Shown piece by piece: positions 46,466 through 56,138 of a DNA stretch of 64,000 bases; positions within the stretch are counted from its first letter, which is position 1, and each line of letters begins with the position of its first letter. Below the pieces are notes generated by a model. The model saw nothing but the letters and a program-made list of their open reading frames with translations, ran no database searches and was not told the DNA's origin. The DNA is from Parachlamydiales bacterium (GTDB taxonomy: Bacteria > Chlamydiota > Chlamydiia > Chlamydiales > Rhabdochlamydiaceae), in the NCBI GenBank assembly GCA_963705295.1, contig OY970065.1, positions 1,792,001-1,856,000 on the forward strand. Reading direction: 5' to 3'. The position numbers and the translations under genes are program-made.

Positions 46466-47183
46466 ATTAACTTTCCTCGGAACGCGCGGGGAAATCAAAC
46501 CCAAAACTTCCCGTCATCGGATGCACACCTCATTGATGATTTCCCACATGAGAACCAAAATCATGATCGATTGCGGAACATCCTGGCTTGGCAGGCTCGG
46601 TAAAATTAAAGCTGATCATATCATCCTCACCCATGCCCATCCCGACCATGCTTTCGGCCTCAAAAATGGAGCTCCCTGCCCCGTTTGGGCCACACAAGCG
46701 ACCTTCGACTACATTCAAAAATTTCCCATCAAACAAAAACATCTCATCCAGCCTCGTAAAAAAATCCGCATCGCCGGTGTCACGTTCGAGCCGTTTCCCG
46801 TTCTCCATTCGATCCGGTGCCCTGCCGTCGGCTACCGCATCACCTGCAAAAAAATAAAATTTTTCTATGTACCCGATGTCGCTTATATTCCCGACATCGA
46901 CGAGGCGTTCCAGAGCATCCAATTTTACATTGGTGACGGAGCAACACCCTGGCGCCCCATGATCCGTAAAAACAAACAAACCGGTGAAATCTTCGGCCAT
47001 GCTACAATCCGGCAACAACTCACCTGGTGCCATAAACAACATGTCCCCAAAATGATCATCACCCACTGCGGCTCTGAGATTGTCTCCAAAGAAAAACTCG
47101 TGCTCCCCCGCATTCAAGAATTTGCAAAACAAAGAGGCGTCGAAGTTGTTCTCGCTTATGATGGTCTGGAGCTTTCTCTATGA
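46434..47183 (+). CDS. MBL-fold metallo-hydrolase
   Basis: LTFLGTRG, IDCG, THAHPDH, HS, GH, THC and AYDG motifs; start codon uncertain. Confidence 0.82.
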   Translation: MSSALSKTNFKLTFLGTRGEIKPKTSRHRMHTSLMISHMRTKIMIDCGTSWLGRLGKIKADHIILTHAHPDHAFGLKNGAPCPVWATQATFDYIQKFPIKQKHLIQPRKKIRIAGVTFEPFPVLHSIRCPAVGYRITCKKIKFFYVPDVAYIPDIDEAFQSIQFYIGDGATPWRPMIRKNKQTGEIFGHATIRQQLTWCHKQHVPKMIITHCGSEIVSKEKLVLPRIQEFAKQRGVEVVLAYDGLELSL

Positions 47184-47959
47184 AAGAATATTTATGGACA
47201 TCCGCTGGTGGTAGACTTCAATATCAAAGCGCGCAGGGTACAAGCGCGGTGAACTGGTTATTTCTTCCAGGTGGACCAGGACTGGGCTCCGAAGCTCTCG
47301 CAGATCTGACCGGGCTTCTCAAAGATAAAATCCCCGGGGTTATCTGGCATTTCGATCTACCCAATGACGGCTCAAATCTTTTAAAAGATAAATCACTATC
47401 CAACTGGCGCGCTGCTATTACCCAAGCCGTTACAGCTTTTGAGAAAGTCGTCTTGGTTGCACACTCCACTCCAGGCATGTACGTCCAAACCATGCCTCAA
47501 CTTGAAAACCTATTACATGGCCTTGTCCTCATCGGTTCTGCACCCGATGCTTCATGGCAAAAATCACTCCCTAAAGAAATCATCGAACCAAAAAATGATG
47601 ATGAACTGAGGAAATTGTTAATTGCCTCAGCACACCAGTGCTTTGTCACAGACAAATCTCTAGAACAGGGAAAAGAATTATTTAAAAGAATTCCTGTCAA
47701 TAACAGAGCGCATGAACTCTCCTCAAAAATTTTTGACGTAGAAAATTATAAGGCGACATTCATCCCAAAACATCTGAAGACCCTGATTATAACCGGTTCG
47801 AGCGATCACATCACTCCTTCTGCCCTGTTCAAAAACAATCCGCTCTATCAAAGAGAGAATATTTTAATCAGAGAAATCCCTCAAGCTGGCCACTATCCGT
47901 GGTTTGAAAATCCCAAAGAAGTCGCTCACGCATTTCAAGATTTTTCTAGAAAAACCTGA
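47180..47959 (+). CDS. Alpha/beta hydrolase
   Basis: LPGGPG, AHS, G..DHITP and AGHYPWFENP motifs. Confidence 0.82.
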   Translation: MKEYLWTSAGGRLQYQSAQGTSAVNWLFLPGGPGLGSEALADLTGLLKDKIPGVIWHFDLPNDGSNLLKDKSLSNWRAAITQAVTAFEKVVLVAHSTPGMYVQTMPQLENLLHGLVLIGSAPDASWQKSLPKEIIEPKNDDELRKLLIASAHQCFVTDKSLEQGKELFKRIPVNNRAHELSSKIFDVENYKATFIPKHLKTLIITGSSDHITPSALFKNNPLYQRENILIREIPQAGHYPWFENPKEVAHAFQDFSRKT

Positions 47960-47963
47960 AAAG

Positions 47964-48077
47964 ATACGGCCAAATTTGGCCGTATTCCCCCCAATACGGC
48001 CAAAAAGCTTGAAATTTGGCCGTATTTACCCTAAAATTGGCCGTATATGGACTTTAGAGACAAAAAAATGGCCGTAT
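47964..48077. promoter_or_regulatory. Six TGGCCGTAT motifs (two inverted pairs plus direct copies), putative operator array
   Basis: Perfect palindrome atacggccaaatttggccgtat at 47964-47985; further copies at 47994, 48015, 48037 and 48068, the last inside the Fic ORF. Confidence 0.7.
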
Positions 48078-49411
48078 TACACCGGTTAAGCCAAGAGTCA
48101 GAAACAATCAGTTTATTGGAGCTCCTTAAAAAATTGGGCGAGGAGTTCGCTGAACGGAGTGTTAGACGTTGGTTGATGGAGATGATCAAAGAAGGTTTAG
48201 TTGAAAAAATAGGAAGCAAAAGAGCCACAAAATACAGAGCTACGACACGTGCCCAATCCCGTCGAATTGACACAAGGAGTTGTTTTAGCTCAGATAGTCT
48301 AAAAGTGCTGATCCAAGTGCGAAAACCGCTTTTTGAGAGGAATCCTTCCGACTACTCCGAAGAATGGTTCGATTCTTACAAACCGAATGCAACGTTCTAT
48401 ATTCCCCTAAGTTTTAGGACACAACTTCATCAAGCGGGTAAAAGATCTAAACAACACGACCCTGCTGGCACCTATGCTCATCAAATTTTTGATCGTTTAC
48501 TCATAGACCTTTCCTATAATTCCTCAAGGTTAGAAGGAAATTCATATTCTCTTTTAGATACCCAACGTTTAATTCTTGAAGGTAAAGGAGCCGAAGGAAA
48601 ACTCTACGAAGATAAAGTGATGATTCTAAATCACAAAGAAGCCATCCATTATTTAGTCGATAATGCGCCGCGCTTAAAAATAAGCACGAGGACAATCTAT
48701 ACTCTTCATTACCTTCTCTCAGATGGTTTAGTAGAAGCCGAGCATTCTGGAAAAGTTAGAGATCATACGATTCGTATTGGAGGCTCAACCTACATTCCTT
48801 TCGAAGATCCAAAACGGCTCCGTTTCCAACTGGAGCGGATAACAGAAAAAGCCTCCCTCATAAACGATCCTTATGAACAGAGTCTTTTTTTACTTGTTCA
48901 TATCAGCTATTTACAAGCTTTTTCTGACGTCAACAAAAGAACAGCGCGCTTAAGTGCAAATCTACCTCTTATTACACATAATTTTGTTCCTCTTTCCTTC
49001 AATGATGTCGAAAGGAATGATTATATTTCTGCGATCATTGCGATTTATGAATTACAAAATGTGCAGCCCTTAGTAGATCTTTATATCTATTCTTACATGC
49101 GGACTTGCGCTATGTACGATTCAACTATAAAAGCCATAGGCTTTGATGAAGTGCGGGTCCGTTACAGGCAAGAGCGCCGTGCGATTATCCGTAATATTAT
49201 TCTTCATCAACTCACCGATGACGGTATGAAAGATTACATCGATTCTCAAACAAAAAAATTAATTCCTGAAAATGACCGAGAAGCTTTTATTGCGGATATT
49301 ATGGAAGATCTTCACATGATGAATGGTAATCGCATTGCAGGACTCGGAATTACTTTAGATCAACTGGCTGATTGGTCAAAAAAAACCGGATTCGCGGAGC
49401 GAGAGGAATGA
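48047..49411 (+). CDS. Fic family protein with N-terminal winged HTH and non-canonical Fic motif
   Basis: SSRLEGN, MILNHK.A, LH..LSDGL; Fic motif QAFSDVNKRTAR. Confidence 0.88.
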   Translation: MDFRDKKMAVLHRLSQESETISLLELLKKLGEEFAERSVRRWLMEMIKEGLVEKIGSKRATKYRATTRAQSRRIDTRSCFSSDSLKVLIQVRKPLFERNPSDYSEEWFDSYKPNATFYIPLSFRTQLHQAGKRSKQHDPAGTYAHQIFDRLLIDLSYNSSRLEGNSYSLLDTQRLILEGKGAEGKLYEDKVMILNHKEAIHYLVDNAPRLKISTRTIYTLHYLLSDGLVEAEHSGKVRDHTIRIGGSTYIPFEDPKRLRFQLERITEKASLINDPYEQSLFLLVHISYLQAFSDVNKRTARLSANLPLITHNFVPLSFNDVERNDYISAIIAIYELQNVQPLVDLYIYSYMRTCAMYDSTIKAIGFDEVRVRYRQERRAIIRNIILHQLTDDGMKDYIDSQTKKLIPENDREAFIADIMEDLHMMNGNRIAGLGITLDQLADWSKKTGFAEREE

Positions 49412-49421
49412 GATGGTCATC
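49375..49421. repeat. Direct-repeat copy of the radC 3' end (left island boundary)
   Basis: 49375-49404 is identical to 55472-55501 (30 bp) and 49408-49421 is identical to 55522-55535 (14 bp). The spacer between the blocks is 17 bp shorter in this copy. Confidence 0.93.
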
Positions 49422-49436
49422 CATATTGCCAATACA

Positions 49437-50372
49437 TCATGTAAAAAAAAGAGGGGCTGTAAAAATCAAACTATCGATCCGATCGAGCAATCCTCCGTGA
49501 CCGGGCAAAAGTGTCCCAAAGTCTTTGACTTTGACATCACGCTTTAGGGCTGACATCGTAATGTCACCCAGAAATCCGGCAATGCTTAGGATAACTCCTA
49601 CGAAAGCAGCTAAAGTAGAACCCATAGGTGTCAAAAAAGGTGCAATGAGTATCGAGAAAATAACCGTCGTAACGATTCCTCCTAAAAGTCCTTCGTAGGT
49701 TTTTTTTGGACTAATACTCGGCACAATCTTATGTCTCCCAAAAAGCTTACCCCACATGTATTGGGATGCATCGTTGATTTCCGTAATAAAAAGCAAAAAC
49801 AACATCAGACCTAAAGGTCCTGCTTTGAATCCTATCTGAGAAGAAAAGACAGGTAGATAAGCAACATAGCTCAAGCTATACCCAGCCATCATAATTCCCC
49901 AGTACATGCTCCCCATAGCTTGGAGAAAACCCTCCGTCGTGCCCACGATGATCATCCGAATGGGAATGAGCAGATAAACATATACCGGAATAAAGATCAG
50001 AAAAAGAGTATAACATTCCATCAAAATAAAACCGTATTGGATCGGAATAGATAAATAGAGCCATAATCTGACACGTTGATCTTCTAGACGTTTAGGAATG
50101 ACAAAAAGATATTCCCGAAGGGCAAAGAGGCTAATGAACATCCAAAGTAAAATTAAGCACCAGGGACGGGTCAGAAAAACGATTCCAAAGACACCTACAA
50201 TATACCACCAGGCCAGGATACGTTCTTTAAGATCGGCAAATCTACCTTCTGAATTTTGTTTTATCCAAATAAAAATCTGAAAAAGTCCTAGCAAGGCAAC
50301 AATGAAAAACAATGCCCATAAAATGGGTGGTGTGAGTAATGGAAACCATTCAAAAAATAAATTATTTTCCAT
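49437..50372 (-). CDS. Phosphatidate cytidylyltransferase (CdsA/YnbB-like)
   Basis: ND..QY.WGKLFG, P.ISPKKT.EG and S.LKRD..VKD.G.LLPGHGGLLDRIDS motifs. Confidence 0.92.
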   Translation of the reverse strand: MENNLFFEWFPLLTPPILWALFFIVALLGLFQIFIWIKQNSEGRFADLKERILAWWYIVGVFGIVFLTRPWCLILLWMFISLFALREYLFVIPKRLEDQRVRLWLYLSIPIQYGFILMECYTLFLIFIPVYVYLLIPIRMIIVGTTEGFLQAMGSMYWGIMMAGYSLSYVAYLPVFSSQIGFKAGPLGLMLFLLFITEINDASQYMWGKLFGRHKIVPSISPKKTYEGLLGGIVTTVIFSILIAPFLTPMGSTLAAFVGVILSIAGFLGDITMSALKRDVKVKDFGTLLPGHGGLLDRIDSLIFTAPLFFT

Positions 50373-50447
50373 TTAAGATAAAGACTATACCTCAATTTTG
50401 TTATCTGGGGTGCTTTTTTTTACCAATTCCTCTATAATCCCCTATCT

Positions 50448-51056
50448 ATGGACATTGGATTATACAATTTAAAATATCCCTTTAGGAAAATGATCGGTTT
50501 TTTACTCCCCTTTTTTAGAAATACCCATCCTAATTGGGTTAGTTTATCTCTCATTCCCATTGGGTTATTCACAGCTTTTATTTATTTCTTTGCTCCTCAG
50601 GCACCCATTCTCTATACCATAGGAGCCTTGATGATTCTTTTTCGAATGGTGGTTGGAACTTTAGATGGCCTTATCGCTGTTAAATTCGAAAAGAGCACAC
50701 CGAGTGGCGAAATCATTAACCGGATCGCCCCAGAAATCTGCGATATCTTTTTGATGATCGCCCTCAGCTATTCAGCGCCGGCCTATACTTACCTGGGTAT
50801 CTCGGCGATGGGAATGTGCTGGGCAGTGACATTTTTTGGGCTCGTTGGGATTGTAGCTGGAAGGAAAATTCAAAGCGTTGGTCCAGTAGGACAGACCGAT
50901 CGGATTGCAGCATTGAGTTTATGCTCCGTCCTCCAATATTTTAGTTCTACTTATCATTGGGGTTTTGATTTTATCTATCTCTTTTTGTGGTGGGTTATTG
51001 TGGGCAGCCTCATCACAGTAGGACTCCGGATTTGGCGCACCTTTCGAATTTTATGA
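50448..51056 (+). CDS. CDP-alcohol phosphatidyltransferase family protein (YnbA-like)
   Basis: LY.LK..F, HPN.VS, LDGLIA.......SGEI.N......CD and GP.G..DR motifs. Confidence 0.8.
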   Translation: MDIGLYNLKYPFRKMIGFLLPFFRNTHPNWVSLSLIPIGLFTAFIYFFAPQAPILYTIGALMILFRMVVGTLDGLIAVKFEKSTPSGEIINRIAPEICDIFLMIALSYSAPAYTYLGISAMGMCWAVTFFGLVGIVAGRKIQSVGPVGQTDRIAALSLCSVLQYFSSTYHWGFDFIYLFLWWVIVGSLITVGLRIWRTFRIL

Positions 51057-53020
51057 AGTCTCTACGTCAACGTTTTCCTATTTTACAAGACGGAATTTTC
51101 CTGAATCACGCTGCTACAGCCCCAGTATCCTATGCGACGATCGATCGAATGAAAGCTCTTTGCGATGAAATGCAAAAGCCTCTAGGAGAACATTTCTACC
51201 GCTGGCTCGGGATCTTGGAAGAAACCCGTCGTTTGGTAGCCGAACTTCTCCATGCACATCCGAGTGAAATCGCTTTCACACAAAACACATCATCTTCGCT
51301 CAGTATCATCGCTGGATGTATCGACTTTAAACCAGGAGATCGGGTTCTTGTTCCCCGAGATGAATTCCCTTCTAATCGATATGTTTGGCAAAATCTTAAA
51401 TACCGGGGTGTTGAGTGCTCCTTTTTCGATATTCCGAATGATCAACCCTTACTTGAAGTCTTAGAAAAACAAAATCTTTCCAAGGTTCGTTTAATCGCCC
51501 TAAGCCTGGTCGGTTATCAGACTGGAAAAAAACATGATCTAAAATCGTTTGGGCGATTTTGCCTAGAAAATAACATTTTTAGCTGTGTTGATGCTATTCA
51601 AGCTGTTGGCACAATTCCTATAGATCTTAGAGATTCTCAAATCGATTTTCTAGCCGGAGGCGCTCAGAAATGGCTTCTTGGACCTATTGGATGCGGATAT
51701 TTTTATATTCGTAAAGATCTAATTGAAAAAGTGAATGTCCCTCTCGTAGGTTGGACTAGCACAAGCTACCCTGAAAACTTTGATCTCATGGAGCTCGATT
51801 TCGCTCCTGAAGCACTCCGATTTGAGCCCGGACTTACCAATATCGCTTCCATTGGCGGTTTCAATCAATCGCTGCGAGAATTGGGAAATATTGGTTGGGA
51901 TTATATTTATGAGAAAATCGCAACCAATACACGTTATCTTATAGAAAATCTACGTCAGGTTGAGGGTCTTGAGCTGGCTACCCATGATCCACAAAATCTT
52001 GGTGCCCTCGTCAGCTTTAGAATACCTAAGACCATCAATCCTAAAAAACTCCTTCCTGAACTTGCGAAAAAAGGGATTGTGATTACCGCAAGAGGAAATT
52101 CCCTACGTGTATCGCCCCATTTTTACAATACTACCACTGAACTAGATACATTCATGCAAACCATCGCCAAGCAATTCGATAATCGTCGTATTTTTTTCCC
52201 TGATATACATATTAAAAAACTGCCTCAGAAACAATCGATTTTGCTGCTGGGAGCAACTGGCATATTAGGACAAGAGATCGCTCTCTATCTAGCGGAAAAA
52301 GGGTTCAATGTCACAGGAATTGGTAGAAATATAGCCACCTTAAATGAGCTTCAACAAAAGATTGAAGGTCAATTTCAAACTGGTTTTGAACCGATTGTTT
52401 TAGATCTCATGGATCAAGAGGCTATTACAAAATTTTTCGATACACAACTGTCGCAGCAAAAAAAATATGTTGGACTCATCAACTGCGCTGGAATTGTTGA
52501 AGCAGAACGAGCAGCCGCTTTGAACCCTGTAAAACTCTCCGAAATGTTTCAGGTCAACATGTTAGCCCCCTCTCAATTCATGCAGAATTTTATTTCGAAT
52601 CTCTGTTCAGAAGATGCCATCGGCATCTTAAATATTGTTTCTCCTTCTGGACGTTGTGGTTATCCATTGCTTGGAGGTTATGCTGCGACCCATGCTGCAT
52701 TATGGACCTTTAGCGAGAGTTTAAATCGAGAATTGTTCAAAGAAAAGTTACACGTCACGACTTATGTGGCCGCTCCTATCCATTCTCGCATGCAAAAAAG
52801 GATTGGCCGAACTTTGCTCCGTTACTTTCAAATGAAAGGAAAGTTTAATTACGACCATGCTGAGGAAGTCGCACGTCTTGCGGTGGATGCCTTCTTTGCA
52901 CGAAAAGAGGTTGTTATGAGCCTCAAAAACCGTATTCGTCTGATTTTGAATGCCCTAGCTCCCCGTTTCCTGACCCGCAAAATTTCCAAATTTTGGCTTT
53001 TAGAAAATGCCAAATATTAA
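51053..53020 (+). CDS. Fusion of class V PLP-dependent enzyme and short-chain dehydrogenase/reductase
   Basis: N-terminal half: FLNHAAT.P, NTS, EFPSN, DAIQ, QKWLLGP and RVSPHFYN. C-terminal half: GATGILG, NCAG, VN, S...YAATH. ATGA coupling to the upstream gene. Confidence 0.88.
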   Translation: MKSLRQRFPILQDGIFLNHAATAPVSYATIDRMKALCDEMQKPLGEHFYRWLGILEETRRLVAELLHAHPSEIAFTQNTSSSLSIIAGCIDFKPGDRVLVPRDEFPSNRYVWQNLKYRGVECSFFDIPNDQPLLEVLEKQNLSKVRLIALSLVGYQTGKKHDLKSFGRFCLENNIFSCVDAIQAVGTIPIDLRDSQIDFLAGGAQKWLLGPIGCGYFYIRKDLIEKVNVPLVGWTSTSYPENFDLMELDFAPEALRFEPGLTNIASIGGFNQSLRELGNIGWDYIYEKIATNTRYLIENLRQVEGLELATHDPQNLGALVSFRIPKTINPKKLLPELAKKGIVITARGNSLRVSPHFYNTTTELDTFMQTIAKQFDNRRIFFPDIHIKKLPQKQSILLLGATGILGQEIALYLAEKGFNVTGIGRNIATLNELQQKIEGQFQTGFEPIVLDLMDQEAITKFFDTQLSQQKKYVGLINCAGIVEAERAAALNPVKLSEMFQVNMLAPSQFMQNFISNLCSEDAIGILNIVSPSGRCGYPLLGGYAATHAALWTFSESLNRELFKEKLHVTTYVAAPIHSRMQKRIGRTLLRYFQMKGKFNYDHAEEVARLAVDAFFARKEVVMSLKNRIRLILNALAPRFLTRKISKFWLLENAKY

Positions 53021-55514
53021 TAAATCGATCGCGGATTACATTGAATGTCTCGCATCGGAATTTGATTCTCAAATTGCTATAACGTACTATCACCGATTCC
53101 GCTCGACAACTTACACGTATCGTCAAATCTATGAATTGGCTCTTAAATGTTCGGTTTTCTTTTATGAAAAAGGAATTATTAAAGGGGATCGCATATTGAT
53201 TTATGGAGACAACTGTCCCGAGTGGGTTGTTGTTTTACTAAGCTGCGCCTTGACGGGTATTATTTTAGTTCCTATAGACAGTAAGTCTCCACCTGAGTTT
53301 GTAGAGAAAATAAGGAAAGAAACCGATGCTAAATGGGTCATTTCTGATGCTTCTATTCCCTCGCAAAATACCGTTTTGGATCATCTTTTTTCGATTATCG
53401 AAGCGCATGACTCTAGTCTGTTTTTCAAAAAAAGAGCCCGCTTAAGTCGTGATGATATTTTCGAGATTCTTTACACATCGGGAACTACGGCAGCTCCTAA
53501 AGGCGCCGTCATTCGACATCGGAATTTTATTGCGAGCATTTGGGGACTGCGGGAGCACCATTTAGTTTGTAATAAAAACTGCCGATTTTTATCGATGCTT
53601 CCCTTAAGCCATGTTTTAGAACAGAATGGAGGTTGCCTCTCTGTACTTCGATTTGGAGGCCAGATTGTATATGCGAAACAAGTCCGATTTGCTCGCATCG
53701 TTGAAATCCTAATCCAAGAAAAAATTACCCATATTGTCAGCGTACCGGCTATTTTGAAGAGATTTCAAAACAAAATTGTAGAAGAAAGCGAAACTGGGGG
53801 CACGTCGCATCAATTAAAAAAGCTGCTCCATTTCTCTCAAAATCTTCCTACATTTCTGAGACGACTTTTGTCTCGACCTTTGAGGCAAAAAATTGGACCC
53901 CATCTTCAAGCTTTCCTATGTGGGGGCGCACCATTGAATTTAAGTACTGAGACTTTTTGGGAGAATTTAGGAATTAAGGTCATTCAAGGTTACGGTCTCA
54001 CGGAAAGTTGTGCCATGAGCTGCATAAATACCTTTAATCATCGTCAAAAAGGATCTGTAGGAAAACCCATTCCCAATCAAACTCTCACCCTAGGTAAGGA
54101 CAACGAAATCCTTCTTCGCGGAGATAACATCATTTCCGAATATTACAATGCTCCTGAACTCAATCGAGAATATTTTCGAGATGGATGGTACCATACGGGT
54201 GATGTAGGTCGATGGGATGATGAAGGGAATTTATATATCGTTGGCCGTTTAAAAGAGATGATTCTCACCTCCAATGGACTCAATGTTTTCCCTACAGACA
54301 TTGAAGAAATCTTAAATAATATGGAGGGGATAAAGGAAAGTGCTGTCTTCGAGGATCCTCTGCATGAAGGTAAACTTCTAGCAGGCATTATTCTGGAGAA
54401 TCAAGAAATTGACACGCATATCACCCTTGAAAAAACAAATCGACAACTTGCAACGCATCAACACTTAAGTCAGCTAATTCCTTGGTTTCACCCTTATTTA
54501 CCTAAAACTGTTTCTTTAAAGATTAAGCGGAATGAACTTCCAAAAATCTATGAGCAATATTCCACAAAAAAAGTGAGCGTCTCACAACCACAACAAGATC
54601 CTCTTCTTCATATCATTGCTGAGATCTGTCGGGTTCCCGCCTCAGGCTTAGCCCCTGAAACGACTTTAGTTAAAAACTTAAATTTTGATTCACTCAATCT
54701 TGTCGATCTTGTAATTCGACTTGAGTCACAGTTCCGCGTTGATATTGACGAAGCCCAGTTAAACCGAGATTGTAGTATCCAGCAACTCCGCAAACTCATT
54801 ATAGCAGCGCAAAAAATAAAGAAACCACCTCGTCTTTCCCCTTTCTATTGGTCTAGATCTGCAAAAATCATCAGACGGATTTTGCGTATGACCATGGAAG
54901 GAATTATTCGAAGATGGATCAAGATTGAAGTGGTCGGAGTGATTCCTGAAATTCCTAAAAATCGACCGACAATTTTCATTGCTAATCATACAAGTCACTT
55001 AGATACTTTTTCCATTCTGGGAACGGTTCCTTCCTATTTCAAATACCGTATCGCTATCGCAGCAGCCTATGACTATTTTTTTGGAGAGAAAAAAAAGAGA
55101 AGTTTTTTCATGAATCCACTTTTAATCCCTATGTTCCCTTTCCACAGAGATGACTATTTTAGTGAAAATCTGAAAAATATGGGCGAACTTCTCAAGAGTG
55201 GACAACACCTACTCATTTTCCCTGAAGGGACTAGGAGCCGAAATGGAACTATGGCATCTTTTAAGCCTGGTATAGGAATGATTGTAAAAGAAATGAACGC
55301 TCAGGTTGTCCCTATTCACATCGATGGAGCTTATCAGCTATGGCCTTCCTCTGCATCCTATCCGAAAAAAGGAAAGATTCAAGTACGGTATGGCAAACCG
55401 ATAAGCTTCGATTCCACCTTTTCTCCTGAAACGATTACATCCACCTTAGAAACCCATGTCCGCGAACTCGCGTCAAAAAAAACCGGATTCGCGGAGCGAG
55501 ACGAACGAGTTTGA
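53007..55514 (+). CDS. Acyl-AMP ligase - acyl carrier protein - lysophospholipid acyltransferase fusion
   Basis: YTSGTT..PKG, GYGLTE, TGD and GR.KE (adenylation); FDSL (ACP Ser); NHTSHLD and FPEGTRS (PlsC-type). Confidence 0.92.
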   Translation: MPNINKSIADYIECLASEFDSQIAITYYHRFRSTTYTYRQIYELALKCSVFFYEKGIIKGDRILIYGDNCPEWVVVLLSCALTGIILVPIDSKSPPEFVEKIRKETDAKWVISDASIPSQNTVLDHLFSIIEAHDSSLFFKKRARLSRDDIFEILYTSGTTAAPKGAVIRHRNFIASIWGLREHHLVCNKNCRFLSMLPLSHVLEQNGGCLSVLRFGGQIVYAKQVRFARIVEILIQEKITHIVSVPAILKRFQNKIVEESETGGTSHQLKKLLHFSQNLPTFLRRLLSRPLRQKIGPHLQAFLCGGAPLNLSTETFWENLGIKVIQGYGLTESCAMSCINTFNHRQKGSVGKPIPNQTLTLGKDNEILLRGDNIISEYYNAPELNREYFRDGWYHTGDVGRWDDEGNLYIVGRLKEMILTSNGLNVFPTDIEEILNNMEGIKESAVFEDPLHEGKLLAGIILENQEIDTHITLEKTNRQLATHQHLSQLIPWFHPYLPKTVSLKIKRNELPKIYEQYSTKKVSVSQPQQDPLLHIIAEICRVPASGLAPETTLVKNLNFDSLNLVDLVIRLESQFRVDIDEAQLNRDCSIQQLRKLIIAAQKIKKPPRLSPFYWSRSAKIIRRILRMTMEGIIRRWIKIEVVGVIPEIPKNRPTIFIANHTSHLDTFSILGTVPSYFKYRIAIAAAYDYFFGEKKKRSFFMNPLLIPMFPFHRDDYFSENLKNMGELLKSGQHLLIFPEGTRSRNGTMASFKPGIGMIVKEMNAQVVPIHIDGAYQLWPSSASYPKKGKIQVRYGKPISFDSTFSPETITSTLETHVRELASKKTGFAERDERV

Positions 55515-56138
55515 ACCGATGATGAGATGGTCATCGAAGCCGATTCCCATGACTTTACTGGATCTTAGGAGATGTTGTGTGAGTTCAAGGTCGGCCCCTG
55601 ATGGAGTGGGATCGCCACTCGGATGATTGTGAGCGAGGATGAGGCTGCTGGCTTTATGGCGTACAGCTGGAAAAAATATTTCACGTGGATGGACTAAGAC
55701 CTCGGAAAGGGTACCGATGGAGACTTTTTCGCAGCCGATGAGCCGTTGTTTGACATCTTTCAAGATCACCATCAAGATTTCGTGTTTTTGATGGGCTAGA
55801 TCGTTTTTTACCAGTTCATAGGCTTCTTTTGCTCGGATGGGCAAAGAGGGTGAGAATGTTTTTTGGGTTAGCTTGAGGGCGATGCCAAAGGCGGCTTTGA
55901 GTTGAATCGCTTTCGCTCTTCCAATTCCCTTGATTTCCATGAGCTCTTCAATCGATGCTCCTAAAAGTTTTTCTCCAAACTTTGCAACGATTTCTTGAGA
56001 CAGTTCGAGGACCGATTTTTCTTTGGTTCCGGTCGTCAGCAAAATAGCGACGAGTTCCGTGAGTGAAAGAGCGTCGATTCCCAGTGACATGAGACGCTCG
56101 CGGGGCCTTTCTTGCGGAGGTAGTTTAAGCAAGCTCAT
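55473..56138 (-). CDS. radC: RadC family JAB-domain protein
   Basis: ERPRERL, GIG.AKA, VHPREIF, HNHPSGDPTPS..D and DHLIIG motifs. Confidence 0.95.
   Translation of the reverse strand: MSLLKLPPQERPRERLMSLGIDALSLTELVAILLTTGTKEKSVLELSQEIVAKFGEKLLGASIEELMEIKGIGRAKAIQLKAAFGIALKLTQKTFSPSLPIRAKEAYELVKNDLAHQKHEILMVILKDVKQRLIGCEKVSIGTLSEVLVHPREIFFPAVRHKASSLILAHNHPSGDPTPSGADLELTQHLLRSSKVMGIGFDDHLIIGSNSFVSLRESGFF

Follow-up and report, generated by a model that had tools for sequence, protein, structure and literature searches.

A widely conserved fusion of a class V PLP domain and a short-chain dehydrogenase/reductase, encoded among lipid genes of a Parachlamydiales bacterium

A keto intermediate is shared by PLP-dependent and nicotinamide-dependent enzymes in several described systems, namely SerA/SerC, serine-glyoxylate aminotransferase/hydroxypyruvate reductase, GnnA/GnnB and SPT/KDSR, of which SerC and the serine-glyoxylate aminotransferases belong to class V. 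We know of none of these pairs that is coupled or fused to a membrane protein resembling the CDP-alcohol phosphotransferases (PTs), the enzymes that carry the signature D-x2-D-G-x2-A-R-x8-G-x3-D-x3-D. We analysed a window of 64,000 nucleotides from the genome of a Parachlamydiales bacterium (contig OY970065.1, positions 1,792,001 to 1,856,000, forward strand), in which a class V PLP domain and a short-chain dehydrogenase/reductase (SDR) are joined in one chain next to such a membrane protein. NCBIfam and PDB matches revealed no sequence relationship of this fusion to the four pairs beyond the superfamily level.

The fusion lies in a single open frame on the forward strand (50987–53020), where the ORF listing and translation give a 655-aa protein from the ATG at 51053 (51053..53020). 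This ATG overlaps the stop codon of the upstream gene PT2 as ATGA, and the alignments of fusion homologues begin at residue 1–4. The original prediction had read the frame as a class V PLP domain joined to a Rossmann SDR, and every motif that it listed was located by script: DAIQ at residue 180, QKWLLGP at 205 (with Lys206) and RVSPHFYN at 352 in the PLP domain, and GATGILG at 400, NCAG at 477 and YAATH at 543 in the SDR domain. The proposed combination of Aminotran_5 and adh_short was recovered by Pfam search, with Aminotran_5 at residues 15–350 (E = 5.6e-50) and adh_short at residues 396–585 (E = 1.8e-26; 93.3 bits against a cut-off of 26.6). Among the best 120 database matches, 84 are full-length fusions of 624–726 aa (residue counts out of 84 refer to these homologues throughout), and both domains occur in one frame at 33 loci, each from a different genome. 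Together with an AlphaFold2 model of high confidence (mean pLDDT 95.2, pTM 0.89), these homologues and loci show that the PLP–SDR fusion is a genuine, widely conserved two-domain protein. Between the domains, model confidence drops only in the linker (aa 376–391, 52178..52225, +; block mean pLDDT 76), which is poorly conserved in the homologue alignment; examination of the model revealed no transmembrane segment. The protein ends in a helical tail with many basic residues (aa 601–655, 52853..53020, +, including the stop codon), modelled as helices 603–615, 624–635, 637–647 and 650–653 and conserved at N633 (82/84), P637 (78/84) and W648 (69/84). Its helix 637–648 has a hydrophobic moment of 0.71, reached by 4% of shuffles, and a net charge of +4. 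Full-text literature searches returned no paper on this PLP–SDR system, and we found no solved or curated family nearer to it than generic SufS or generic SDR. The fused homologues are distributed over many phyla.

The PLP domain (aa 1–375, 51053..52177, +) is of class V and SufS/C-DES-like. The Schiff-base lysine (K206), the Asp that contacts the pyridine nitrogen (D180) and the residue at O3′ (Q183, a Gln/His position) are all present and, like R352, align with SufS residues and are invariant (84/84). In the alignment R352 faces the Arg of the ‘R-A-S-x-H’ segment in SufS, an Arg that we take to be the carboxylate anchor there; from its invariance and this alignment we infer a substrate of amino-acid type. 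In the HMMER alignment to the cysteine desulfurase 5b7s, ‘ITARG..NSLRVSPH’ of the query faces VRSGHHCALPVMKKLGINGTVRASFH, and the persulfide-Cys loop of 5b7s, GHHCALPVMKKLG, is without counterpart in the query. SufS-type desulfurases read ‘EHHSD/EHHAN’ where the query reads ‘EFPSN’, which places the invariant Phe105 (84/84) at the position of the SufS stacking His, and the position adjoining His356 is Phe or Ala across the family. Because the Cys loop is deleted and the stacking His is an invariant Phe, the alignments indicate that the PLP domain is not a cysteine desulfurase, as had been proposed from the missing Cys. The nearest structure by Foldseek superposition is C-DES (TMt 0.90, rmsd 2.0 Å), and SufS is matched at E of about 1e-30. 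A separate class V gene is present elsewhere in the same genome.

Immediately upstream, PT2 (50448..51056, +) encodes a 202-aa membrane protein with the CDP-alcohol-phosphotransferase fold. Its Pfam CDP-OH_P_transf match barely exceeds the cut-off (22.6 against 22 bits), its AlphaFold2 model (pLDDT 87.8) shows the six-transmembrane-helix fold, and its top Foldseek matches are PIP synthases, IPCT-DIPPS and AF2299 (TMq 0.69–0.76). The protein carries the motifs GTLDG..A..x8..G...NR..PE..D and QSVGPVGQTDR; in place of the canonical signature it reads G-T-L-D-G-..-A-V-x8-G-x3-N-x3-P, and in the alignment to 4mnd only one of the four signature Asp survives (D1 is Gly, D3 is N91 and D4 is P95). A regular expression for D..DG..AR..G...D...D finds the three other CDP-OH PT genes of the genome (L086, L087 and L088) and not PT2. 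With three of the four Asp gone, PT2 may not be a catalyst of phosphatidyl transfer, and yet 34 of about 200 residues are invariant despite this loss. At all 33 fused genome loci, the gene directly upstream of the PLP gene is PT2; of the 44 metagenome loci that extend at least 400 bp downstream, 39 have a class V gene after PT2. In a 200-genome sample of the phylum, PT2 occurs in exactly the 5 genomes with a full-length fusion and in 0/5 genomes holding only a stand-alone PLP homologue.

Two further lipid genes flank this pair. The divergently transcribed cdsA2 (49437..50372, −; 311 aa) belongs to the phosphatidate cytidylyltransferase family, with a full-length Pfam CTP_transf_1 match (E = 3.7e-62, profile positions 1–258 of 264), whereas the NCBIfam equivalog PRK11624 is matched over its C-terminal part only (95.8 bits against 385), which leaves functional equivalence to the housekeeping CdsA putative. 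A CdsA-like gene stands beside the fusion at 31/33 fused loci, the remaining two being cut by contig ends. Downstream, FAAL-ACP-LPLAT (53007..55514, +) encodes an 835-aa tri-domain protein with acyl-activating, carrier and acyltransferase parts (Pfam AMP-binding, E = 6.3e-65; PP-binding, E = 8.2e-08; Acyltransferase, E = 5.3e-19). It overlaps the 3′ end of the fusion by 14 nt, so that this overlap and the ATGA link three genes. FAAL-ACP-LPLAT follows the fusion only in close chlamydial relatives (loci L001–L004 and L093), and a stand-alone PlsC-type acyltransferase or PlsY replaces it in other lineages. Related loci also carry PlsC, PlsY, alpha/beta-hydrolase and LpxO/OlsC-like genes. The genome has one other CdsA copy (C1:188869); since it already possesses a canonical CdsA, three canonical CDP-OH PTs and Psd, the set of cdsA2, PT2 and fusion is additional. 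No inositol-1-phosphate synthase gene was found in this genome. An early suspicion of lipid metabolism thus fits the context of CdsA-like, CDP-alcohol-PT-like and FAAL-ACP-acyltransferase neighbours.

The classical SDR domain (aa 392–600, 52226..52852, +) retains the Rossmann glycine motif (G400xxG403xxG406) and the NNAG-type strand 4 (N477CAG). Its Asn-Ser-Tyr-Lys tetrad is incomplete: N502, S530 and Y543 (codon 52679–52681) are present, while His547 stands for Lys and is encoded by CAT (52691–52693), two substitutions away from either Lys codon. Reductive SDRs that use NADP(H) have, as a rule, Arg or Lys directly after strand 2, and because residue 425 (R425 in the query) is R or K in 73/84 homologues, the domain is probably of NADP(H) type. 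An anionic substrate is suggested by the conservation of R534 (81/84) and R586 (84/84) and by the substrate-loop helix 576–594, the strongest amphipathic, basic segment of the protein. The domain had been likened to ketosphinganine reductase and acyl-DHAP reductase; we found no specific likeness to either, and it scores as a generic classical SDR under every NCBIfam cut-off. The best curated models are PRK09072 (118 bits against a cut-off of 238) and mycolate_SDR, matched by 29/29 members.

We consider it probable (roughly 0.75) that the fusion is a functional two-domain enzyme of an accessory, horizontally mobile phospholipid-type module with a core of a second CdsA, the re-wired PT2, the PLP–SDR protein and an acyltransferase, and not a sulfur-mobilising desulfurase. 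From the observed domain anatomy, motif states, conservation, synteny and co-occurrence we infer substrate, reaction type, cofactor, step order and any catalysis by the SDR domain as follows. CdsA2 would make CDP-activated diacylglycerol, with PT2 handling this lipid and a serine-like alpha-amino-acid head group or acceptor. The PLP domain, which has Arg352 and Lys206/Asp180/Gln183 but neither the Cys nor the acid-base His of SufS, would render the C-alpha proton of the amino-acid moiety labile and, by transamination or beta-elimination, yield a 2-oxo acid or another carbonyl compound. The fused SDR, probably of NADP(H) type, would use Tyr543 and Ser530 to reduce the carbonyl, with His, Gln or Asn at position 547 holding the nicotinamide ribose in place of Lys and Arg534 binding a neighbouring anionic group. 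Channelling of a keto or aldehyde intermediate from one domain to the other, as originally proposed, may occur. In the chlamydial lineage, FAAL-ACP-LPLAT would finally (re)acylate the lipid from free fatty acids. As a complete sequence of steps, from CdsA2 through PT2, PLP and SDR to acylation, this scheme is unlikely to be right in every part; the functional module and the stepwise mechanism, taken as one account, fall somewhat short of an even chance.

The most serious competitor, which we regard as doubtful and still deserving of weight, is that the PLP domain alone is catalytic and that the SDR of the query's clade is a cofactor-binding or structural module serving membrane or PT2 docking or NAD(P)H sensing. 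The fused family has a single split, into a clade that bears the Lys (31/31) and the query's clade, in which the YxxxK Lys is missing from all 53 members. In the query's clade mean pairwise identity is lower for the SDR than for the PLP domain (0.41 against 0.50); the Lys-bearing clade has nearly equal values for the two (0.51 against 0.52). In a third, split-gene clade (clade C), the orthologous stand-alone SDR-like protein is without Ser and Lys in 6/6 and without Tyr in 4/6 members, and retains the glycine motif, R534, P538, W551, E555 and R559; an SDR redox step therefore cannot be universal. PLP-only forms are nested within the fused clades in at least 5 places, and from these and their occurrence without PT2 it follows that the PLP domain can work or be re-used alone. 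Against an idle SDR stands the pattern of conservation in the query's own clade. Y543 is kept in 50/53 members, S530 in 48/53 and N502 in 47/53, the glycine motif is nearly invariant (G400 and G403 53/53, G406 52/53), and position 547 does not drift freely: it is H/Q/N in 49/53 and H/Q/N/S in 51/53, never Lys. The clade has in addition gained His577, Lys582 and Arg590, invariant (53/53 each) in its substrate loop, which could rebuild the proton relay. The Lys-to-His change had been flagged as unusual; YAATH is indeed there, but the alignments place Yxxx[H/Q/N] as a clade-wide trait of single origin, in which His itself is not strictly conserved.

A tentative and more specific form of the module reading accommodates these clades. 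An undescribed, widespread head-group route would employ a SufS-type PLP enzyme without the Cys, acting on an amino-acid moiety that is bound to lipid and kept in place by PT2, in which the metal-binding and base Asp positions are re-wired. The SDR of this route would be in transition from a reductase (Lys clade) through an altered form (His/Gln/Asn clade, with the query) to a subunit that binds NAD(P) without catalysis (split clade). Such a route would make a new phospholipid class, for example with a hydroxy-acid or modified amino-acid head group, and the hosts would include chlamydiae, Legionellales, Bdellovibrionota, Planctomycetota, Acidobacteriota, Omnitrophota and cyanobacteria-like lineages.

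Two further pathways are improbable, each to a similar degree. In the first, of the GnnA/GnnB kind, the SDR oxidises a hydroxyl on a lipid backbone or head group (for example that at sn-2 of lyso-phosphatidate, or one on PG glycerol), the resulting ketone is transaminated by the PLP domain and the acyltransferase N-acylates the amine, with N-methylation by the methyltransferase of the Lys-bearing clade and with CdsA2 and PT2 accepting the altered backbone. This would explain the company that the PLP and SDR genes keep, namely dedicated, divergent paralogues of CdsA and PT, an acyltransferase gene and, for clades B and C, Methyltransf_20, and a fused oxidase–transaminase would hand on the labile keto intermediate. 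However, the basic residue after strand 2 is of the reductive NADP(H) type, the PLP domain descends from SufS-type lyases rather than from known sugar or lipid aminotransferases, and literature searches found no amide-backbone phospholipid. In the second, the fusion supplies a soluble precursor by converting a free amino acid, for instance serine via hydroxypyruvate to glycerate, into the hydroxy acid or alcohol which PT2 then joins to CDP-diacylglycerol. Serine-pyruvate aminotransferases belong to class V, a weak AGXT match appears for the clade C PLP protein, the fusion has no membrane span, and PLP-only relatives occur without PT2; a passage of PMC12275187 moreover describes a phosphoglycerate head group in bacteria, the ceramide phosphoglycerate of Caulobacter. 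An interfacial enzyme is, however, the better match for the strict gene-level link with a membrane protein and for the amphipathic, basic loop and tail, and NCBIfam and PDB matches gave no sequence tie of the family to AGXT-type enzymes.

Far less probable is a sphingoid-like route following the logic of SPT and ketosphinganine reductase, in which the PLP domain condenses an amino acid with acyl-ACP from FAAL-ACP and the SDR reduces the 3-keto product. The nearest neighbours in ESM Atlas feature space are Aminotran_1_2 + adh_short fusions (score 0.93) from bacteria and Nucleocytoviricota, and an acyl-activating protein with ACP lies directly 3′ of the fusion. Yet all alpha-oxoamine synthases known to us are class I/II, whereas this domain is class V (the Pfam search reported no Aminotran_1_2 match for the query), and the constant partners are CdsA2 and PT2, not the acyl-ACP source confined to the few chlamydial loci. 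A plain cysteine desulfurase or selenocysteine lyase incidentally fused to an SDR is scarcely credible: several databases name the fusion ‘cysteine desulfurase/selenocysteine lyase’ or ‘Cysteine desulfurase SufS’, and its best PDB and NCBIfam sequence matches are desulfurases, but the lost Cys loop and acid-base/stacking His speak against it, the scores are far under every curated cut-off (TIGR01979 sufS, 122.4 bits against 475.1; likewise the CsdA, NifS, IscS and SclA models), and lipid genes, not suf/isc partners, adjoin the fusion. An artefactual fusion through a lost stop codon or misassembly, to which the split genes of clade C might point, is effectively ruled out by the 84 fused homologues in independent assemblies, the 33 loci and the confident single-chain model, and since the clade C genes have a methyltransferase gene between them and share only about 25% identity with the query, a recent break of the fusion does not account for them. 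The split forms constitute a separate, older-looking clade, and most of the family contradicts the alternative of homologues that invariably come as two genes.

The synthesis of phospholipid head groups in bacteria is generally regarded as mostly catalogued, and the conservation of this set, 3 to 8 genes in size, would indicate a lipid pathway or lipid-modification pathway that has so far been missed. Its members are a second CdsA, a re-wired protein of the CDP-alcohol-PT kind, a SufS-type PLP enzyme without the Cys, an SDR and an acyltransferase, to which some clades add Methyltransf_20, a Rieske oxygenase and an alpha/beta hydrolase, and the set spans host-associated, predatory and free-living phyla. 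The three clades, with complete, Lys-less and dead tetrads, are a natural experiment on the tolerance of the SDR tetrad, as PT2 is on the CDP-alcohol-phosphotransferase signature. Dozens of database entries named ‘cysteine desulfurase/selenocysteine lyase’ would need renaming.

Comparison with known systems defines what is particular to this locus. The fusion has in common with the group II cysteine desulfurases (SufS/CsdB, Thermococcus 5b7s) the class V fold, Lys206, Asp180, Gln183 and the ‘RFEPG’ and Arg352-x-Ser-x-His segments, with best E values of 3e-28 to 1e-22 for SufS-type matches. It differs from them in the deletion of roughly 13 residues of the persulfide-Cys loop, in ‘EFP’ with invariant Phe105 for the ‘EHH’ His pair, in the attached SDR and in its location in a lipid operon instead of a suf operon. 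C-DES (1elq/1n2t), the NifS-like cystine C-S lyase of Synechocystis, likewise has no catalytic cysteine and performs beta-elimination; it is 21% identical to the query, matches the clade C PLP protein at E = 8.5e-5, falls outside all three clades and has neither an SDR nor a known PT2 partner. With FabG, YMR226C/YdfG-type enzymes, CmrA and PRK09072 the SDR domain shares the adh_short fold, glycine motif, NCAG and Asn-Ser-Tyr, whereas the query's clade has His/Gln/Asn for the YxxxK Lys and the fusion family has its own R534, P538, W551, E560 and R586 and a basic amphipathic substrate loop and tail. FAAL-ACP-LPLAT resembles Aas, which reacylates lysolipids from free fatty acids (PMC8590670), in joining AMP-binding and PlsC-type acyltransferase domains in a single protein. 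Its NCBIfam matches to acyl-[ACP]-phospholipid O-acyltransferase are weak; the domain order is the opposite of that in the Aas models, with the ligase first and the acyltransferase matching the N-terminal part of Aas, and it has a built-in carrier domain (PP-binding). PT2, finally, has the six-helix fold of the PIP synthases and IPCT-DIPPS (5d92, 4mnd, 6wm5, 4o6m and 6h59) and retains Asp73, Gly74, Ala77 and Gly87 of the CDP-alcohol-phosphotransferase signature, but differs from these enzymes in Gly for D1 (Ser/Asn/Thr in clade C) and, throughout the three clades, in the loss of the signature Arg, in Asn91 for D3 and Pro95 for D4, and in a new invariant QSVGPxGQTDR motif.

The fusion at 51053..53020 (forward strand) is real and old. 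The original prediction of a 655-aa reading frame joining a class V PLP domain to an SDR is borne out by frame, translation and Pfam: a single open frame runs through 50987–53020 on the forward strand of the window, the ATG at 51053 opens a protein of 655 aa, and Pfam places Aminotran_5 at residues 15–350 (E 5.6e-50) and adh_short at residues 396–585 (E 1.8e-26). All motifs quoted in that prediction were located, namely DAIQ at residue 180, QKWLLGP at 205, RVSPHFYN at 352, GATGILG at 400, NCAG at 477 and YAATH at 543, where the His codon is CAT (52691–52693). Our word-indexed search scored 7996 candidates, of which 693 were related at E ≤ 1e-3; 84 of the 120 matches listed are full-length two-domain proteins of 624–726 aa, and an exhaustive HMMER search agrees on the fusions. 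These 84 proteins make up alignment A1, from which the other 36 listed matches were left out: database proteins P0028 (609 aa, 92% coverage) and P0071 (465 aa), the PLP-only proteins P0049 and P0056–P0059, and P0093–P0121 (≤58% coverage). The AlphaFold2 model derived from A1 reaches a mean pLDDT of 95.2 and a pTM of 0.89, with a sole dip to ~76 in the linker. A lost stop, against which the original prediction had cautioned, or a misassembly is excluded by the 84 fused homologues from many lineages and by this confident model.

Judged by sequence, the PLP domain is a constrained enzyme that cannot be a desulfurase. Among solved structures, it lies closest in sequence to group II cysteine desulfurases (5b7s, E 3e-28; SufS, ~1e-22), followed in the ranking by the cystine lyase C-DES (E 2e-21), and Foldseek returns SufS at E ~1e-30 and C-DES as the tightest superposition (TMt 0.90, rmsd 2.0 Å). 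K206, D180, Q183 and R352 are invariant in 84 of 84 fusions. The two features that define desulfurases are, in contrast, both missing: (i) the persulfide-cysteine loop, 'GHHCALPVMKKLG' in 5b7s, has no counterpart in the HMMER alignment of the query, and (ii) 'EFP' stands in place of the SufS-type 'EHH' segment, Phe105 being present in all 84 fusions. NCBIfam desulfurase models score 57–122 bits against cut-offs of 475–661, so that the suspicion that this is not a true cysteine desulfurase proves well founded. Databases name the protein 'cysteine desulfurase/selenocysteine lyase' or 'aminotransferase class V-fold PLP-dependent enzyme', and another class V gene is present elsewhere in the same genome. 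Because Arg352, which we take from SufS work to be the anchor of the substrate α-carboxylate, is retained, the substrate would be of the α-amino-acid type and would lose its Cα proton, in a transamination, elimination or epimerisation and not in a decarboxylation.

By profile comparison, the SDR domain is of the generic classical type. The profile built from 29 SDR-domain sequences (A2) matches many FabG-like structures at ~1e-30; none of the 29 members exceeds the cut-off of a curated family, the best models, all below cut-off, being PRK09072 (29/29) and then 3-ketoacyl-ACP reductase and mycolate reductase. Arg or Lys directly after strand 2 marks NADP(H)-using SDRs and is found in 73 of 84 fusions, by which rule the domain is probably of the NADP(H) type. 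At the position of the catalytic Lys, the 84 fusions carry K (31), H (25), Q (14), N (10), S (2), Y (1) and M (1). We noticed two groups by this column, here named clade A (non-Lys, including the query) and clade B (Lys-bearing), and confirmed them on a maximum-likelihood tree built without it, in which one branch parts all 31 Lys from all 53 non-Lys proteins (SH-aLRT 100). The tree requires a single change between Lys and non-Lys and 16 changes among all residue states, hence ~15 among non-Lys residues. Conservation of the His, which had been proposed as a check, is thus confirmed only in part: the non-Lys state holds clade-wide (53/53), whereas His itself is not fixed (25/84).

Judged by its residues, the SDR module differs in catalytic competence between clades. 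Clade A keeps Y543 (50/53), S530 (48/53), N502 (47/53), Gly400 and Gly403 (both 53/53), Gly406 (52/53) and R534 (50/53), and has its own invariant substrate-loop residues H577, K582 and R590; clade B is marked by R/Q403, T530, A357 and H575 instead. Mean pairwise identity in clade A is 0.41 for the SDR domain versus 0.50 for the PLP domain, and in clade B 0.51 versus 0.52. The main rival to the functional assignment developed below holds that the clade A SDR no longer performs redox catalysis; with the Lys gone and the domain more divergent, and with the Tyr, Ser, Asn and glycine motif largely in place, we consider this somewhat unlikely.

The fusion and its two same-strand neighbours are tightly packed. 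The fusion ATG shares an ATGA with the TGA of the upstream gene PT2 (50448..51056, forward strand), and the downstream gene starts 14 nt ahead of the fusion stop, overlaps that correspond to packing for translational coupling. PT2 encodes a 202-aa membrane protein (Pfam CDP-OH_P_transf, 22.6 against a cut-off of 22 bits), the CdsA-like gene cdsA2 (49437..50372, reverse strand) lies divergent from it with a full-length CTP_transf_1 domain, and the downstream gene (53007–55514, forward strand) encodes 835 aa with AMP-binding, PP-binding and PlsC-type acyltransferase domains, here termed FAAL-ACP-LPLAT. A scan of 49300–55800 yielded fewer promoter-like sites than shuffled sequences, and nothing between PT2, the fusion and the downstream gene that would pass convincingly for a terminator. 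No related protein of at least 1148 aa was found at E ≤ 1e-30, and the longest fused homologue among the matches listed for proteins of 360–1147 aa measures 726 aa; a triple fusion of PT2, PLP and SDR is therefore not seen.

Coupling of the fusion to PT2 and CdsA2 is obligatory. The fusion profile retrieved 80 genome loci, of which 33 encode both domains; in these, a PT2 homologue lies directly upstream in 33/33 and a CdsA-like gene is present in 31/33, the remaining two being cut by contig ends, and PT2 and the CdsA-like gene are absent from all 47 PLP-only loci. For the reverse test, a metagenome scan with the PT2 profile gave 62 loci, 44 of them with at least 400 bp downstream, and in 39 of these 44 a class V PLP gene on the same strand starts within 450 bp of PT2; the five exceptions are short or partial. 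Within a 200-genome sample of the phylum, the full-length fusion occurs in five (G000, G054, G123, G149 and G154), PT2 occurs in exactly those five and is adjacent each time, and five more genomes contain only a stand-alone PLP homologue without PT2. Four loci with stand-alone PLP homologues (L013, L034, L036 and L077) have no neighbours in common.

The company of the fusion consists of acyltransferases and other lipid enzymes, arranged in three architectures. Clade A, read at 18 non-Lys genome loci, combines the fusion with PT2 and CdsA2 and lacks Methyltransf_20; FAAL-ACP-LPLAT is added in close chlamydial relatives, an LpxO/OlsC-like hydroxylase at one Legionellaceae locus, and a second PT/CdsA pair at Bdellovibrio-type loci. 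The tri-domain protein 3′ of the fusion was seen only in the chlamydial loci L001–L004 and L093. At the Bdellovibrio-type loci L012:7678–9984 and L018:6568–9951, the fusion is preceded by two CTP_transf_1/CDP-OH_P_transf gene pairs in a row, which suggests that CMP activation and transfer take place twice in succession. Clade B operons comprise CdsA, a PlsC-type acyltransferase (or PlsY), Methyltransf_20, sometimes an α/β hydrolase, PT2 and the fusion. Methyltransf_20 (PF12147) is present at 14/14 clade B-type loci (L020–L032 and L035, e.g. L025:7021–11959) versus 0/19 clade A loci, and Lys is found in all 11 of those 14 loci where the motif is readable. No NCBIfam model names Methyltransf_20; in the ESM Atlas it is often fused to lysophospholipase-like α/β hydrolases (clusters of 538–609 aa, mostly Pseudomonadota).

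The split-gene form, clade C, was reached only through PT2, which is 30–39% identical and keeps the same altered signature. Its operon comprises CdsA, a Rieske/VanA-type oxygenase, an acyltransferase, PT2, a class V PLP gene, Methyltransf_20, in some loci a hydrolase, and an SDR-like gene separate from the PLP gene (metagenome loci L134–L151, with Rieske/VanA_C oxygenase, e.g. L136:2361–8802 and L142:1982–8165). A DUF3370 gene adjoins some of these loci, such as L136. In the PLP protein, the motifs DFP(A/S)N, DAIQ, QKW and R-x-SPH are preserved. In six SDR-like proteins, the catalytic Ser is replaced by Gly/Ala (6/6), Lys by Gln (6/6) and Tyr by Phe (4/6), and the glycine motif, R534, P538, W551, E555 and R559 are retained. 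C-DES was considered as a member of this cyanobacteria-like clade and rejected (E 8.5e-5). On the PLP-domain tree, the fused proteins and a few nested short forms group together (SH-aLRT 99), separate from the stand-alone relatives; the short forms are nested in at least five places, meaning either repeated loss of the SDR or repeated sampling of fragments.

By fold, PT2 is a CDP-alcohol phosphotransferase, but one with a re-wired signature. PIP synthases, IPCT-DIPPS and AF2299 are the structures closest to its AlphaFold2 model (pLDDT 87.8; TMq 0.69–0.76). The signature reads G-T-L-D-G-x2-A-x-x8-G-x3-N-R-x2-P-E-x2-D, leaving only the second of the four signature Asp; invariant are Asn91, Pro95, Glu96, Asp99 and a QSVGPxGQTDR motif, among 34 invariant columns in 28 sequences. 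The three other CDP-OH phosphotransferase genes of the genome keep the canonical motif, and a second CdsA and Psd are also present, so the operon adds to housekeeping phospholipid synthesis and does not replace it.

Fusions are found by source name in Chlamydiota, Legionellales, other Gammaproteobacteria, Bdellovibrio and Omnitrophota, and by genome loci also in Oligoflexia, Planctomycetales, Acidobacteriota, Eisenbacteria and Vulcanimicrobiota. The fusion is absent from the 5 other genomes of the genus and the 35 other genomes of the family searched, and present in 4 genomes from three other families of the same order. The stretch at 48–54 kb, comprising a Fic-domain gene and the operon, has a G+C of ~0.405 versus ~0.46 on either side. 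This distribution and the low G+C suggest that the operon was acquired horizontally. The Fic/DOC gene within this stretch (48047–49411, forward strand; 454 aa, E 1.3e-08, with an N-terminal winged-helix match) is flanked by an α/β-hydrolase gene (47180–47959) and cdsA2. Simkania-like genomes of the same order (G053, G060 and G076; L013:9995–11092) carry a stand-alone PLP protein, 53–62% identical to the PLP domain of the query, with neither an SDR domain nor PT2 or CdsA2 nearby; the G060 copy contains an in-frame TAA.

We infer a role of the module in making or remodelling a phospholipid, and assign it, with a probability of about 75%, as an accessory phospholipid-type module built around a non-desulfurase PLP-SDR enzyme. 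In our preferred mechanism, CdsA2 would supply CDP-diacylglycerol, which PT2 would hold together with a serine-like moiety; the PLP domain would remove the Cα proton of the amino-acid head group or acceptor, transamination or elimination then yielding a 2-oxo product, and the NADP(H)-type SDR would reduce this product. An acyltransferase would complete or repair the lipid, in the present operon fed by its own FAAL-ACP with free, perhaps host, fatty acids. This specific chemistry is quite unlikely to hold in full. Other rivals are that an alcohol is converted to an amine by oxidation and transamination and then N-acylated or N-methylated, or that the fusion supplies a soluble hydroxy-acid acceptor. 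The last rival is a sphingoid-like condensation, for which the nearest ESM Atlas feature clusters, fusions of Aminotran_1_2 and adh_short, provide a lead and not evidence. An inositol-phosphate acceptor, suggested by the nearest folds of PT2, was provisionally set aside, a search of the genome (94.7% complete) for Inos-1-P_synth having returned nothing.

The class I/II aminotransferase and adh_short fusions retrieved from the ESM Atlas with P0002 are analogous and non-homologous to the query fusion, and include a bacterial cluster (676 aa, 93 members) and one from Nucleocytoviricota (622 aa, 105 members). The ceramide-phosphoglycerate pathway of Caulobacter is a precedent for glycerate head groups only (PMC12275187); the main text of that paper does not contain the terms 'CDP-alcohol' or 'phosphatidyltransferase', and its passages on the pathway mention no PLP or SDR enzyme. 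We found no description of the fusion or the gene cluster in full-text searches of the main texts of open papers. The 835-aa protein resembles Aas but has a reversed domain order and its own carrier domain, and could use free fatty acids for the direct acylation of lysolipids, with no need for soluble ACP. Compared with known systems, the kinds of domain are familiar, whereas what is new is their combination, together with the two catalytic signatures that are altered and the cluster that is conserved.
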